Source of the DNA: a virus
Taxonomy: Duplodnaviria; Caudoviricetes
Reading direction: 5' to 3' (one strand)
Length of the DNA: 64,000 bases
IMG/VR virus record: IMGVR_UViG_2974513946_000001
Span: 3,499 to 67,498 of that record
The notes beneath the pieces were generated by a model. That model was not told the DNA's origin. It saw only the letters and a program-made list of their open reading frames with translations, and searched no databases. Each line of letters starts with the position of its first letter. Positions within the stretch are counted from its first letter, which is position 1. Below are positions 52,599 through 63,454 of this stretch, in pieces. Made by a program: the position numbers and the translations under genes.

Positions 52599-52630
52599 GA
52601 CAGGCTTCCGTCTTGGTTGGGAGTACGCGA

Positions 52631-52659
52631 ATTTTATATATCATCGTCGGAACGGTCAA
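52631..52659 (-). promoter_or_regulatory. sigma70-like promoter
   Basis: TTGACC-17bp-TAAAAT; AGTGAAATA at 52686-52694. Confidence 0.8.
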
Positions 52660-52708
52660 GCTTTTGTTTGCTTGAAAGGCGTAAATATTTCACTGCAAGA
52701 ATGCAGGC

Positions 52709-52746
52709 AAAAGAAAACCCGCCAGCGGTGTTAACCGGGCGGGTTT
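52709..52746 (-). terminator. Intrinsic terminator of the putative ncRNA
   Basis: AAACCCGCC/GGCGGGTTT stem followed by TCTTTT. Confidence 0.85.
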
Positions 52747-52935
52747 GGGTGTGTCTTCTGTACCAGAGCTATAAGGCACCAATGAGGCTAATCAACCGGC
52801 GTTCCCTCCTTACGCCCTACAATGGCGGCTATCGCCCCCGCGATGCTCCCGGAATGGCTGTTTTATGCCTTCCTGCCCTGACAAGTGGACGGCTAGCCGG
52901 TTCCGGGTGCCAACCAGTGCAACAGTAGGACACCC
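52747..52935 (-). ncRNA. Putative structured non-coding RNA (~189 nt, 6S-like rod)
   Basis: Lies between its own promoter and terminator; no AUG; 5' and 3' halves pair (GGGUGU/ACACCC, CUGU/ACAG, GGCACC/GGUGCC, AACCGGC/GCCGGUU). Confidence 0.75.
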
Positions 52936-52939
52936 GCGC

Positions 52940-52968
52940 ATTATATGGACGGCGCACCATAATGGCAA
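52940..52968 (-). promoter_or_regulatory. Near-consensus sigma70 promoter of the putative ncRNA
   Basis: TTGCCA-17bp-TATAAT; GGG at +5 to +7 after the -10. Confidence 0.9.
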
Positions 52969-52980
52969 CAAATTTTAGGC

Positions 52981-53008
52981 AAAAAGAAAGGCCACCGAAG
53001 TGACCTTT
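52981..53008 (-). terminator. UUCG-tetraloop intrinsic terminator
   Basis: AAAGGTCAC-TTCG-GTGGCCTTT-CTTTTT. Confidence 0.9.
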
Positions 53009-53095
53009 AGTCTTGCGCCTTCCCAACCAAAGGAAGGTGTACGGGCCGAATTCGATTGCGGGCGGGCTAGCGCATTCGGCCTTGAAGCGGTGATA

Positions 53096-54238
53096 TTACT
53101 GCGCGGCGGCGTCGGTGTCAACGTCTTGCGCTTCGGTTTCTGGGTCTTTCTTGTCTTCGTCGGAAGGTGCATCACCTTCGGCCTTGACGTGAACCAGATC
53201 AACCCATGCCATCAGTTCCAGCTTCGACAGGAAAGAACGGATTGGCGAGCCGTACAGCATCGGCTTGACCACGGCTTCAAGTTCGTCGATGGACACTTGT
53301 TCGCCGACCGCGAAGTTTTCGCGAATGTGGGCGTGAAGCTTGCCGCGAATCGAAATGCTTTGTGGCTTGCCCAGACCTTCGGCCAGAACAACGAAGTGGG
53401 TAGCACGCGGGCGGCGGGTGCCTTCGGCGCTGCGCAGGTACTCTTCGCGTTCTTTCAGGCCATTGCGCTTGGCTTCGGCGTCTTTTTCGCGCTGAACCTT
53501 GGCTTCACCTTGCAGAACTTTTTCGGCCGCTTTGGCGTCTTCGCGGGCTTGTTTGCGCGCTTCGGATTCCTTGGCCTTTTCGGCTTTCTGTTCTTCTTTG
53601 CGCGCCAGTTTGTCGGCTTCGCGGGCTTCTTTTTCGGCTTCTTTGGCCTTGGCCTTTTCGGCTTTCTTTTCTTCGCGCTTGGCTTCGGCTACCTTGGCGC
53701 GTTCGGCCTTCTTGGCTTCGTTTTCAAGCGCCTTTTCGGCCTTCTTGGCTTCGGCCTTTTTGGCGCGTTCGGCTTCGACTTCGCCGCGATTGGCTTCTTT
53801 TTCGGCTTCTTTCAGCGCCAGTTCTTCGGCGCGTTTGGCGGCGCGTTCTTCGTTCTTTTTGGTGCGTTCGGCTTCTTTCTTCTCGAAATCTTCCTTACGC
53901 TTGAGCGCGGCGGCGGCGTCTTTTTCACGCTGTTTCAGTTCGCGGGCTTCGCGCTTCTGATCAGCAGTCAGCTTGACCGGCGCGGATGCAGCGGCTTCGG
54001 TGGTGGCTGGTGCAGCGTCGGTGCCGGTGGTCGGTGCGACATTGCCGGTTTCCAGACCAGCGAGCGGCAGCGCTTCGGTAGGGGCTTTGGCTTCGTGGTT
54101 GTGCTGGTGGTTGTGCTGGTGGTCGTGGTTGCTCATTTTGCGGCCCTCCTTTGGGCTGGTCTGGGATTTTGCTTTAGTCGAAGGTTTAGCGGCGCCAGTC
54201 TTGGCGGTGCTTTTTACTGAATCGGATTTCTTAGCCAT
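53096..54238 (-). CDS. Lys/Glu/Ala-rich coiled-coil protein with a putative C-terminal DNA-binding domain
   Basis: About 180 aa of KAE/REA repeats (histone-H1/TolA-like composition) followed by a compact ~90-aa globular domain; starts at 54238 and 54136 each have an RBS. Confidence 0.85.
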   Translation of the reverse strand: MAKKSDSVKSTAKTGAAKPSTKAKSQTSPKEGRKMSNHDHQHNHQHNHEAKAPTEALPLAGLETGNVAPTTGTDAAPATTEAAASAPVKLTADQKREARELKQREKDAAAALKRKEDFEKKEAERTKKNEERAAKRAEELALKEAEKEANRGEVEAERAKKAEAKKAEKALENEAKKAERAKVAEAKREEKKAEKAKAKEAEKEAREADKLARKEEQKAEKAKESEARKQAREDAKAAEKVLQGEAKVQREKDAEAKRNGLKEREEYLRSAEGTRRPRATHFVVLAEGLGKPQSISIRGKLHAHIRENFAVGEQVSIDELEAVVKPMLYGSPIRSFLSKLELMAWVDLVHVKAEGDAPSDEDKKDPETEAQDVDTDAAAQ

Positions 54239-54284
54239 GGGATGTACTCCGGGGGAAGTTGGGTTGTGTTTCGGAATGAGCGCC

Positions 54285-54321
54285 ACTATACAAACGAAAA
54301 AGGAGGCTTGCAAGCCCCCTT
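54285..54321 (-). promoter_or_regulatory. Terminator hairpin containing the next promoter
   Basis: AGGGGGCT-TGCA-AGCCTCCT-TTTT terminator; its centre is the -35 of TTGCAA-17bp-TATAGT. Confidence 0.7.
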
Positions 54322-59904: not shown

Positions 59905-61676
59905 CTGACGATATTAACGATCAATTAGCGGATGCTTTCGACGATGACCAAGCCGAATTTGACTTCGCTGGCACCGTTGACGACATTCCTAGCGTCATCG
60001 AAGAAAAGGTCGTCGCTGTTTCCAGTCGCCAGAAGTCTCTAGAAGACTCCGAAAGAGCGACCATCGACGAAGGCATGTCCGAAAAGGATTTGTCTAAGCG
60101 CGCTAAACACATGCTCCGTCACTTCGTGCTGAACTTCCCGGTTGTGGCGATGCTTAAAGACGGTTCGTCTATCCCGAAATCCGATGAACTGAACAGAACC
60201 GCGTTCCTTGATGCGGTGTTCGACTTCGGGAACCCGGCCTATGACCATCCGGTCTTTGACTCGTTTTCGCAGTCCATCGTTATGCACGACGGGCGCGACT
60301 TCGATAAGGCTTGGTTGTTCCCCATCATTAAGGCGATGGGCGCGGTTGGCCTTGAAGGTCAGTCGTATGAAACTGTCGCCGAATCGTATAAGTCATGGGC
60401 GATTCGTCATGAGCGCAATTTGCTTCAAGACCGCATCGAAGCGATGACCCCAGAGTGGGACGGCGTACCGCGTGCCGAAGACTACCTTATTAAGCTGTTC
60501 CGTTGCCGCGATACCCCGACGACGCGCCTTGTGGGCAAACAGTTTTGGCTTTCGCTGTTCAACCGTGCCACACAACCGGGTTGCATCGCTCCCGTCTCTA
60601 TCGCGCTTGTAGGCGGTCAGAACGTGGGTAAGTCGTACTTCTCACAACTGATTTCTAAAGCGATGATTGGTAGTCAGAATCCGCCGTCCGTTCAGTTGAC
60701 GTTTAAGGTGTCAGAGCGTACCGATTTTCTCCGTAACATCACTGGCGCGGCTGTCGTTGCGAACGTGTCGGAGTTCTACGGCTTTTCGTCCGGCGACATG
60801 GATGCAATTAAGGCTTTCACAACCCAGACCACCGACTCTTTCGGTCATAAGTACATGAAAGAAAGGGGTGTTCCGCGTCAGTGGATTGTGATCATGGACG
60901 GCAACGACTATAAAGGCTTCCACCGGGACGATACCGGCAACCGTCGTTTCTATCCGATCTTCTGCAACCAATTGGAAGACGACGCGAAAGGGCATCCGCA
61001 GTGGGAGAAAGGCCAAGTCATCCGCGCAGACTTCGAACAGGGCGCCGGTTTTGATATCGAGTTCTGGCAAGTTATGTCGGAATGCAAGGCATGGATGGCT
61101 GAACAAGGGATGGGCGGCTATGTTCGTTTCACCAACGAAGTGTCCGACGCCGTGGCTACTTTCAACAGTGGCGAAATGGCGAAAGGCGCGGGTACTATTT
61201 CGAACGAGCACACCGATACATGGTTGCCGCGTATCCTTATGGCCGCGATGTGGAAGGTAAAGCGTTCTAAAAGTCGGAATGAGTGGTTCCGTGCTTCGGT
61301 TGCGCTTGATCATTTGCAACAAATCGTCAAACAGGCAAGCAACCAAGAGTTTAACCCGAAGGCTTTAAAGCGCAAGATGGAAACAATGGGCTTTGAACGC
61401 ATCCGGGAACTGAACAAGTACCACTATGTTATTTCCGCTTTAGACTTCCACCAAAATCTAGAAGACCGGAAGTTCGAAGACGAATCGCTTTTGAACGGTT
61501 TCTCTATGCAACTTAAATGGTGGTTGATGAATGAAACACCGAAAGGCGCGGCTCTGGCTTCTATGGTTGTAGCGACTTCCGATGATATGGCCGATGTAAG
61601 GTCGGAAATTGCAGAAGCGCGGCAGGGAATCCGATTCTTTGAAGACGTTGATTCGGAGTCACCAACCGGATTTTGA
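59901..61676 (+). CDS. VapE-like (SF3/AAA+) replicative helicase
   Basis: WDGVPR, Walker A GGQNVGKS, DDTGNRRF motifs. Confidence 0.88.
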   Translation: MTDDINDQLADAFDDDQAEFDFAGTVDDIPSVIEEKVVAVSSRQKSLEDSERATIDEGMSEKDLSKRAKHMLRHFVLNFPVVAMLKDGSSIPKSDELNRTAFLDAVFDFGNPAYDHPVFDSFSQSIVMHDGRDFDKAWLFPIIKAMGAVGLEGQSYETVAESYKSWAIRHERNLLQDRIEAMTPEWDGVPRAEDYLIKLFRCRDTPTTRLVGKQFWLSLFNRATQPGCIAPVSIALVGGQNVGKSYFSQLISKAMIGSQNPPSVQLTFKVSERTDFLRNITGAAVVANVSEFYGFSSGDMDAIKAFTTQTTDSFGHKYMKERGVPRQWIVIMDGNDYKGFHRDDTGNRRFYPIFCNQLEDDAKGHPQWEKGQVIRADFEQGAGFDIEFWQVMSECKAWMAEQGMGGYVRFTNEVSDAVATFNSGEMAKGAGTISNEHTDTWLPRILMAAMWKVKRSKSRNEWFRASVALDHLQQIVKQASNQEFNPKALKRKMETMGFERIRELNKYHYVISALDFHQNLEDRKFEDESLLNGFSMQLKWWLMNETPKGAALASMVVATSDDMADVRSEIAEARQGIRFFEDVDSESPTGF

Positions 61677-61839
61677 TCGTCGGAAATGCTGGGATTTACG
61701 ATAAGTTGCACTGATCTACGGTTTATGTTAGTGACCGTTCGTCGTGCAACTTTCGTCGTTTAATGAAATCACCTTCGATAGTGGCTTTATGATGTTAGCT
61801 TTTCGTTGGTTAAAAAATGTACAGGGTTCGGCGGCGCGT

Positions 61840-62230
61840 CGATCATAGTCAAAAAAGTGATTATCTTTCGGCCTAAATGCGATGATTTCGCAACACGCTG
61901 CAAGCCGCGCAGTATAAGGGCTGTAGCGATTGCCGCGCTTTTTGTAAGGTCATTTATAGTCAGTTAGTCAAGTGATCAGAGCAAAGTAGCCGCCCAGAAC
62001 ACGCCAGACGCTGCGCAGCCAGTACCCCCATATTTACTACAGCATAGTTTCATATATACACTTGACTATATGACTATAGAGAATAGAGAAATGGCTACAG
62101 CCCTTGTATTCCGTGGCCTCTAGCGATAGTCACATTTTTGGAATGCAGATAGTCAGGCGGCTAAATGGTCGCTTAAAATTGAGCTTGACAGCTACAGGCC
62201 ACGAACGGCGCGGCTTGCAGCGTAGTCAGG
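61840..62230. repeat. Putative replication origin: iterated TAGTCA and nested inverted repeats
   Basis: About 580 bp without a gene after the primase-helicase; 8 TAGTCA/TGACTA copies; 15-bp and 12-bp perfect inverted repeats. Confidence 0.7.
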
Positions 62231-62258
62231 TTATTATTTCACTTAGAGGACTCAAACA

Positions 62259-62489
62259 ATGACAACTATTTTCAATTGCCGTTTCTGTCACGAAACATCG
62301 TCTTATAGCGGTGAACAAGAACTGTTCTGTTCGGTAGGTTGCCAACATGATTTCGCCGTTGTAGCTCTATACATCGGAACACAAAGTAAGCGCGGCAACG
62401 TTCCATATAGCGAAGTTCGCACGTTCCTAGAAGACCCATCGAACGAAGACACGCTAGAACGTTTGTTCGACGCAGCCAAACCGCGTTAA
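62259..62489 (+). CDS. Small zinc-finger protein
   Basis: CxxC-x13-CxxxC; GAGG RBS. Confidence 0.7.
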   Translation: MTTIFNCRFCHETSSYSGEQELFCSVGCQHDFAVVALYIGTQSKRGNVPYSEVRTFLEDPSNEDTLERLFDAAKPR

Positions 62490-62553
62490 CATAGACCATC
62501 AGCAACCGCCCAAGCATGGCGCGGCCACACGGACAAACAGGACACACGCAGCC

Positions 62554-63099
62554 ATGAGCGACGACGTAACTAAATATCCCGCCGATCACCCCTTTCATTT
62601 GCGCAACACACCGGAAGTCGAGTTGTTCAGCCGTGGGGACTTCACGGAGTTCAATCAACAAGCATTCCGCAACTTCGCAGATTCCAGAATCGAGGGTTAT
62701 TCGCGTGTAGTTTCGCTGCGTATGTGCTTCGGCAGTAACTTCGTATTCGGTAACGAGACGGCTGCATATTGCTTTGCCATTGAAGCGAATCCGTACTACA
62801 AAAAGCAGTACGACAAGAAGGTCGAAGCGCTTGAACTAAAGAAGGCGTGGAACCCTAAAGTTTCGATGGTTGCCCTAAAGCAACTTATCCGCGACGATTT
62901 CGTTAAAGACAACGTGCGTATGGCGGCGATCAAAGAAGCCAACGTTCTAGCCGAAGTGACTTTCGTTGACGAGAAGGGCAACACCAGAGCGGTGCGCGGA
63001 ATGGATGATTTCTATTCTGACAATTCGGGGAAGACTGGCGACGATGGCGCGGCGATTCCAGAGCATACCCCGCCTGTACCTTCCGACACGACGCATTAA
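62554..63099 (+). CDS. Probable terminase small subunit
   Basis: Helical protein with R.AAIKE.N.L motif typical of TerS oligomerisation helices; no other TerS candidate near terL. Confidence 0.5.
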   Translation: MSDDVTKYPADHPFHLRNTPEVELFSRGDFTEFNQQAFRNFADSRIEGYSRVVSLRMCFGSNFVFGNETAAYCFAIEANPYYKKQYDKKVEALELKKAWNPKVSMVALKQLIRDDFVKDNVRMAAIKEANVLAEVTFVDEKGNTRAVRGMDDFYSDNSGKTGDDGAAIPEHTPPVPSDTTH

Positions 63100-63454
63100 G
63101 CCCTCACCCGTCACACTGACGCCCGTAGACGCAGAACGTTGCGCTACGGGCCTGCTGGACGCCTTCCCGCCTGCATACGACCTGTCACCTACCTACCCCG
63201 CGTAACGCCATGACTGGCGCGGCGATACCCGCCGACCTTCACCACCAGCACCAGCACCGCCCTCGAATGGGCCTTGTGCGACCCACAACCAACCGCCACA
63301 ACGAGCAACGCCCCAACCCGTCACAACCACACCGATTCGGGTAGCGCGTCAGGAAGAGGCGTTCTATGCTTGTACAGAGGGTGTCAGACATGGCACGTTA
63401 GTTGCAGACACAAGTATTTCACTCTTCTGCGTGGACTTTTCGCGCCGGTTAACA

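Follow-up and report, generated by a model that had tools for sequence, protein, structure and literature searches.

Bacterial 6S RNA (SsrS; RF00013) is a stable, abundant and trans-acting noncoding RNA (ncRNA) of ~180-200 nt whose 5′ and 3′ ends are paired in a closing stem; the Escherichia coli RNA is processed from a longer precursor. The pRNA of phi29, a Bacillus phage, is ~170 nt long, and its 5′ and 3′ ends form a helix below a branched centre, where exposed loops can make RNA-RNA or protein contacts. To our knowledge, few phage-encoded ncRNAs have a known function, and most of the candidates that have been described are UTR fragments, not dedicated genes. The ncRNAs found in Pseudomonas phages by transcriptomics include ncRNA1 and ncRNA2 of PAK_P3, candidates in phiKZ, and 5′UTR-derived candidates in 14-1; the PAK_P3 ncRNAs are processed from the 3′UTR, and other candidates come from 5′UTRs (PMC10914365). 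The locus described here appears to be a clean, insulated RNA gene, that is, one with its own promoter, its own terminator and a conserved, covarying fold, and because the phage that carries it is a lytic isolate, the gene is directly testable.

An RNA unit in the replication gene module

The window, that is, the whole 64,000-nucleotide stretch of DNA that was analysed, belongs to a complete virus record of 67.5 kb. The phage is an isolate in public databases and occurs in 20 listed public sequencing runs from nine studies; its Dda-like helicase has 56% protein identity to the helicase of Pbunavirus LBL3, and the phage appears to be a distant relative of the Pseudomonas Pbunavirus phages. The RNA locus lies within the replication gene module, after the helicase and a low-complexity, K/A/E-rich 405-aa gene (53096-54313, minus strand). 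Between the end of this gene (53096) and the start (52598) of an 82-aa gene (52598-52350, minus strand), the first of the downstream operon, 497 nt of the minus strand are noncoding. The neighbouring genes are all without an assigned function and give no pointer to a protein partner of the RNA. The 405-aa protein has a conserved C-terminal domain of ~110 aa (phrog_4765) that is also present in Pbunavirus proteins carrying the annotation ‘structural protein’, in the ‘TolA protein’ of BcepF1 and in Xanthomonas Carpasina-like phages; its length varies among close strains (380 vs 405 aa), and all of the SNPs in the sequencing runs examined (10/10) are inside its gene.

Read along the minus strand, the unit begins with an intrinsic terminator (52987..53008; AAAGGTCACTTCGGTGGCCTTT, with a UUCG tetraloop, a 9-bp stem and a T-run to about 52977) that is predicted to end the transcript of the 405-aa gene and to insulate the RNA unit. 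The sigma70-type promoter of the RNA gene follows (52940..52968; TTGCCA-17-TATAAT, 11/12 matches); in the 3-kb region, six promoter-like sites are found vs 1.4 expected. The RNA core, from the first to the last base of its closing stem, is 189 nt (52747..52935, minus strand; nt n of the RNA is position 52936 - n), starts with GGGTGT, ends with ACACCC and contains no ATG. After an AAA linker, the RNA gene's own intrinsic terminator (52709..52743, minus strand) consists of a GC-rich hairpin, CCCGCCCGG..CCGCTGGCGGG, then TTTTCTTTT; the tail after the hairpin is UUUUCUUUU. A separate promoter, TTGACC-17-TAAAAT (52631..52659, minus strand), serves the downstream operon, and the RNA unit is therefore not needed for transcribing its neighbours. 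The first-pass annotation had described an upstream UUCG terminator, a near-consensus promoter, an RNA without AUG that runs from GGGTGT at 52935 to ACACCC at 52747, and a second intrinsic terminator; all of these are present at 53008-52987, 52968-52940, 52935-52747 and 52743-52709, respectively.

The segment that follows the stop codon of the 405-aa gene and precedes the UUCG terminator (53009-53121, minus strand) contains the hairpins GGCCGAAU...AUUCGGCC and CCUUCC...GGAAGG, and a promoter-like TTGACA-17-TAATAT at 53121-53093 (minus strand) overlaps the end of the 405-aa gene. In L005, an 89% relative, the pairing of the first of these 3′ hairpins is kept by a compensatory change from A-U to U-A. 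The segment could be a structured 3′UTR or a second small transcript of ~100 nt.

In the three contig runs examined, the depth is flat (200-500x) over the whole 2.2 kb and library adapters are located at the contig ends, which identifies the sequencing runs containing the locus as DNA. No RNA data set is listed among the runs with the locus, and a wastewater RNA run available as raw reads yielded none.

Conservation of the unit and its closing stem

Homologues were sought with the helicase as bait across ~5.8 billion proteins, after which the contigs were fetched. In two lineages, L008 (identical to L009) and L011, the helicases are 64% identical to that of the window, a gap follows the same two genes, and the gap has the same five-part layout as in the window, that is, terminator, promoter, RNA, terminator and promoter. 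The homologous RNA cores are 188 nt (L008:8620-8807) and 170 nt (L011:8621-8790), and sequence identity among the three RNAs is only about 50%. The promoters of the two RNAs (TTGACT-17-TATCTT in L008; TTGACC-17-TATATT in L011) occupy the same relative place as that in the window, the terminators after the L008 and L011 cores are preceded by GAAA and GCUGAAAA linkers, and the promoter of the downstream operon is kept (8923-8951 in L008; visible in L011), 50-80 nt past the terminator in all three. The L011 RNA contains no ATG, and no ORF is common to the three RNAs; the motifs that are common to them are YUKGUCAGGG, a C-GGGG-G hairpin loop, UGUAG and GCUGG, with GAU after C-GGGG-G in L008 and L011 only. 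The upstream terminator hairpin, GGTCACTTCGGTGGCC (52987-53008 in the window), is base-for-base the same in L008 (8532-8551), and L011 has an equivalent terminator; at 64% helicase identity, the identity of this hairpin is unusually strong for a terminator.

The closing stem, P1, pairs nt 1-14 (52922..52935, minus strand) with nt 175-189 (52747..52761, minus strand), and 3 nt separate its 3′ strand from the terminator hairpin downstream. The stem is 12-14 bp long in each of the three RNAs and is present in every single-sequence fold (window, L008 and L011). Its sequence covaries among the three RNAs, with changes on both sides in 7-8 of 15 columns, and its duplex energy beats that of ~98.8%, 98.5% and 99.3% of the background 17-mers in the three genomes. 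The distance from the end of the -10 element to the first P1 base is 4, 6 and 7 nt, the predicted start is at, or no more than two bases from, that base in L008 and L011, and the terminator is 3-8 nt past the P1 3′ strand in the three genomes. The first-pass annotation had claimed a stand-alone ncRNA, and this claim is supported by the two relatives, which keep the promoter, a start at the stem, the stem itself and the terminator and have compensatory changes in their stems, and by the lack of a conserved ORF.

Among near-identical strains (L219, L222 and L223), the ~225-nt RNA unit has one substitution and the next ~100 nt beyond it have eight substitutions and one indel. The upstream 3′UTR likewise shows no variation among close strains, which means that a low SNP count does not single out the RNA. 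The variation hot spot at 52600-52700 (minus strand; L222 and L223 vs the window) is the promoter and 5′UTR of the 82-aa gene. The contigs of the 89-93% relatives stop before the RNA locus.

Beyond L008 and L011, where the homologues that the first-pass annotation had proposed to look for are found, the RNA was not detected. In the more distant relatives Pbunavirus LBL3, L210, L212 and L213, the gap that would house an RNA of this kind is missing. With the locus as the blastn query, phages (a collection searched with the window's own record left out), plasmids and E. coli genomes gave no homologue, and no record of the phage collection had sequence similarity to it; nhmmer on all of the fetched loci gave no further homologue; and a covariance model derived from L008 (R1) had no match in 85 loci of more distant relatives. 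Scans of IMG/VR and the JGI metagenomes with motif and terminator patterns returned chance matches only, and no RNA homologue was present in the helicase-guided loci from IMG/VR (≤58% identity) or from bacterial genomes (GTDB; ≤37% identity, all alphaproteobacterial RecD-like genes). These comparisons suggest that the RNA element is real but clade-restricted.

A provisional branched interior

The minimum-energy fold of the 189-nt window RNA is an interrupted rod built from the helices GGGUGU/ACACCC, CU.CUGU/ACAG.AG, GGCACC/GGUGCC and AACCGGC/GCCGGUU, that is, those that the first-pass annotation had drawn by hand, with AACCGGC/GCCGGUU as the first of its two alternatives for the last helix; beyond P1, the rod of the window RNA pairs nt 25-30/156-161 and 34-40/136-142. 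The z-score of this fold is -0.95 (33 of 200 shuffles fold as well), and those of the relatives are also modest (-1.45 and -2.12); what sets the feature above chance is that two diverged relatives have this architecture too, with an end-to-end stem that covaries. The comparison of the three RNAs points to an interior that differs from the rod: P1 would close a 4-5-way junction that presents a long hairpin capped by GUCA and, in the 65-85 nt on its 3′ side, two or three smaller hairpins. This shared, branched fold is provisional because only three diverged sequences exist.

In the proposed fold, domain I (nt 26-91; 52845..52910, minus strand) is a long irregular hairpin with helices P2, P2b and P2c, an A-rich 3′ internal loop and P3. 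P2 (nt 26-35/82-91) is formed by GCACCCGGAA/UUCCGGGAGC and includes an A.A mismatch that the hand alignment shows as conserved, and P3 is capped by a loop that ends in the conserved GUCA of the motif YUKGUCAGGG. The pair probability of domain I is 0.99 in L008 and L011 and 0.08 (P2) in the window RNA, whose ensemble prefers the rod (0.76); enforcing the consensus helices in the window RNA costs 3.7 kcal/mol relative to the rod. Hairpin C (nt 125-155; 52781..52811, minus strand) has the stem AAGGAGG/CCUCAUU, which includes the SD-like UAAGGAGG, and the loop motif CGGYWGA; its stem covaries against L008 and L011, its loop is CGGCAGAC, and its pair probability is likewise 0.99 in both relatives, against 0.07 for the window RNA. 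The UGAY of this loop could form a kissing interaction with the GUCA loop of P3.

The other two hairpins are less secure. Hairpin B (nt 92-105; 52831..52844, minus strand), which we regard as provisional, would be a 5-bp stem with an invariant GGGG loop; its stem reads AUCGC/GCGAU in the window RNA and UUACC/GGUGA in both relatives, that is, three compensatory pairs, whereas its thermodynamic support is low (0.008 in L008; 0.16 in L011) and an alternative pairing of the G-run with a downstream GCCNCC is thermodynamically preferred in both relatives. Hairpin D (nt 109-123; 52813..52827, minus strand), CGCC[AUUGUAG]GGCG with the loop motif UGUAG/UUUAG, is the weakest element; it is present in the window and L011 and has only 2 bp in L008. 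The sole SNP among the close strains (A to G) is in its loop.

A model built from L008 only locates both L011 (20.1 bits) and the window RNA (13.6 bits) at the right coordinates and aligns the window RNA to the consensus P2. The same model has a weak match at 63213-63255 (minus strand; 12.7 bits, E 0.27), which covers only a GC-rich hairpin similar to the closing stem and is most likely due to chance. In the model-fitted alignment, 94% of the cells are paired and 18 pairs have changed on both sides, vs 7.9 in shuffles (0/500 reach 18) and 0-5 with slid partners; the hand alignment has 62 pairs, of which 94% are paired and 26 are compensatory, and RNAalifold applied to it returns nearly the same structure. 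Both of these alignments are structure-guided, and the three diverged sequences amount to effectively two to three lineages. Unguided MAFFT with RNAalifold misaligns the 3′ strands and gives a poor, different consensus (-11.9 kcal/mol). The structural conservation and covariation that the first-pass annotation had thought worth seeking in relatives is seen in P1 and in stems with compensatory changes in L008 and L011.

Function and relation to known RNAs

Scans of the window, L008 and L011 against Rfam, at both gathering and evalue thresholds, returned only terminator-like noise (NsiR1, P9, P37, ctRNA_p42d, Atu_C8, isrB, PhrS and TarB), and ARAGORN identified no tRNA and no tmRNA in the whole window. 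The first-pass annotation had offered a 6S-like RNA polymerase sponge; such an RNA, as an open-promoter mimic, would sequester the sigma70 holoenzyme and aid the switch from host and early to later phage transcription. Pbunavirus-type phages are reliant on the host RNA polymerase and possess both phage-specific promoters and promoters of sigma70-like type (PMC10914365); this dependence would make a sigma70 sponge biologically sensible, and the strong sigma70-type promoter of the RNA gene fits early accumulation. The ~190-nt length, the paired ends (cores of 189, 188 and 170 nt with a 12-14 bp end-to-end stem) and the interrupted rod favoured by the window RNA alone (pair probability 0.76) also agree with a sponge. 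However, the RF00013 model has no match at E≤10 in the whole 67.5-kb record and finds a match in 7 of 14 control genomes, no 6S match is among the Rfam results for the window, L008 and L011, neither GGCACC/GGUGCC nor AACCGGC/GCCGGUU has a nested counterpart in the folds of L008 and L011, both of which are branched, and no large two-sided central bubble is conserved among the three sequences. Thus, of the 6S-like geometry originally described, the length and the paired ends stand, and the rod and the central bubble do not; the sponge reading, which we now consider very unlikely, has neither a 6S model match nor a rod-shaped shared fold behind it, and the fallback of the same annotation, an unrelated new ncRNA class, is favoured by the conserved branched fold and the lack of an Rfam family. 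As judged from covariance models and the comparative fold, we reject membership in the 6S family; a label such as ‘6S mimic’ should not rest on one hand fold.

Three other explanations bear on the same observations. The RNA might be an Hfq- or ProQ-type base-pairing sRNA that uses a conserved loop as the seed against host or phage mRNAs; we regard this as improbable, and it is the main alternative to a protein-binding RNA. The intrinsic terminator with its U-tail, preceded by an A-rich linker (AAA, GAAA or GCUGAAAA) as in many chaperone-bound sRNAs, and the short conserved single-stranded motifs GUCA, GGGG, UGUAG and CGGYWGA are what an sRNA would have, but P1 sequesters the 5′ end, the conserved segments left unpaired span only 4-7 nt, and ~190 nt of conserved structure far exceeds what a seed and a terminator need. 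The location on the same strand just upstream of the downstream genes, with a P1-closed multi-helix junction and a terminator immediately after it, would suit a cis-acting, riboswitch- or attenuator-like leader in which a P1-closed sensor controls terminator read-through into the downstream early operon; the resemblance to large junction riboswitches is in outline only. The conserved promoter that the downstream operon has of its own (in the window, L008 and L011) and the absence, by inspection, of an antiterminator common to all three (5-bp candidates are present in the window and L008 and not in L011) argue against such a leader, as does the lack of a riboswitch family match in Rfam, and we think it unlikely. 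The locus could also be non-functional as RNA, that is, a DNA-level element (replication or regulator-binding sites) or a neutral sequence kept by recent descent. The small number of homologues, the modest fold z-scores, the location in the replication gene module and the DNA origin of the runs that hold the locus are compatible with this; in the opposite direction, helix partners change together and stay paired at an overall sequence identity of only about 50%, the three genomes keep the positions of promoter, terminator and the start at the first stem base, and the locus has neither iterons nor a GC skew switch (the cumulative maximum is at 61-62 kb), so we consider a purely DNA-level or neutral origin highly improbable.

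Several more specific candidates were rejected. The apex of domain I (GUCAGG..GGAAGG..CAGCCA) has what we take to be a likeness to domain IV of 4.5S RNA; the model for bacterial small SRP RNA (RF00169) has no match at E≤10 in the phage and finds one in 13 of 14 control genomes, and the words GGAAGG and CAGCCA are not conserved in L008 and L011. A micropeptide or ribosome decoy (UAAGGAGG with an 8-codon UUG ORF) is disfavoured since L008 and L011 have neither the SD-like word nor the ORF; in the consensus, UAAGGAGG is the 5′ strand of hairpin C. For a CsrA/RsmA sponge, the GGA counts are near chance and GGA is, by inspection, not conserved in loops; for a G-quadruplex, the G-tracts are, also by inspection, too widely spaced; for a retron, no reverse transcriptase is among the neighbouring genes; and for a replication origin or primer RNA, no GC skew switch occurs at the locus. 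The cumulative GC skew maximum is at 61000-62999, where the local GC falls to 0.48-0.49. Apart from these candidates, hairpin D may have a loose resemblance to type I-F repeats, one that is absent in L008. The RNA anti-CRISPR that has been described is a solitary repeat mimic with a hairpin segment near-identical to the host CRISPR repeat (PMC10651486).

The reading that we prefer is a stable RNA that binds protein in trans. We infer that the host sigma70 RNA polymerase would start at, or no more than two bases from, the first base of P1 and that transcription would stop at the strong intrinsic terminator 3-8 nt past P1; the resulting primary transcript, ~225 nt long, would have each end held in a helix, and on this ground we expect it to be stable and to build up early in infection. 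A stable, trans-acting RNA that presents loops is suggested by the sigma70-type promoter, by the clamped ends and by the concentration of conservation in loops and junctions; the conserved bases in loops and junctions, the sequestered 5′ end and the absence of a conserved ORF or antiterminator point to protein binding as its probable role. The RNA may act on a host or phage factor as its decoy, sponge or scaffold, that is, as a protein-binding RNA and not as a 6S-type open-promoter mimic. We see roughly an even chance that it represents a genuine new family of early, stable, structured phage ncRNA, independently transcribed and probably protein-binding in trans, and we hold with middling confidence that the family is confined to a small clade of Pbunavirus-related (Lindbergviridae-like) phages. 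More tentatively, it could be the founding member of a new class of end-clamped, multi-helix phage RNAs that are expressed early from a host-type promoter and neutralise or redirect a host factor; for such a decoy, RNA polymerase, an RNA chaperone or a defence sensor would be speculative targets, and its fold might conceivably be unrelated to those of 6S RNA, the Csr/Rsm sponges and the RNA anti-CRISPRs. If the RNA does serve to decoy a host factor, it would provide an additional, RNA-based mechanism of host takeover or counter-defence.

The comparison with known systems places the phage RNA near several of them and within none. With 6S RNA it shares its size and the pairing of its 5′ and 3′ ends in a closing stem, and the window sequence on its own can take the form of an interrupted rod; the phage RNA differs in having no covariance-model match, in its predicted multi-helix junction in place of a rod with a large central bubble, and, unlike E. 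coli 6S RNA, in being predicted to be a primary transcript with its own terminator. The large-junction riboswitches (e.g., lysine, RF00168) are alike in their P1-closed multi-helix junction, similar size, terminator right after P1 and a possible loop-loop contact; the phage RNA has, in contrast, no Rfam match, a separate downstream promoter and no conserved antiterminator. Its likeness to the pRNA of phi29 would lie in size, end helix and a branched centre that displays loops; there is no sequence or model similarity, phi29 belongs to another phage group, and the window RNA is located in the replication module, with no link to packaging genes and no complementary loop pair for ring formation. 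Like the orphan ncRNAs of Pseudomonas phages, the RNA is small, structured, phage-encoded and conserved only in a narrow group of relatives; unlike them, it has a gene with its own promoter and its own terminator.
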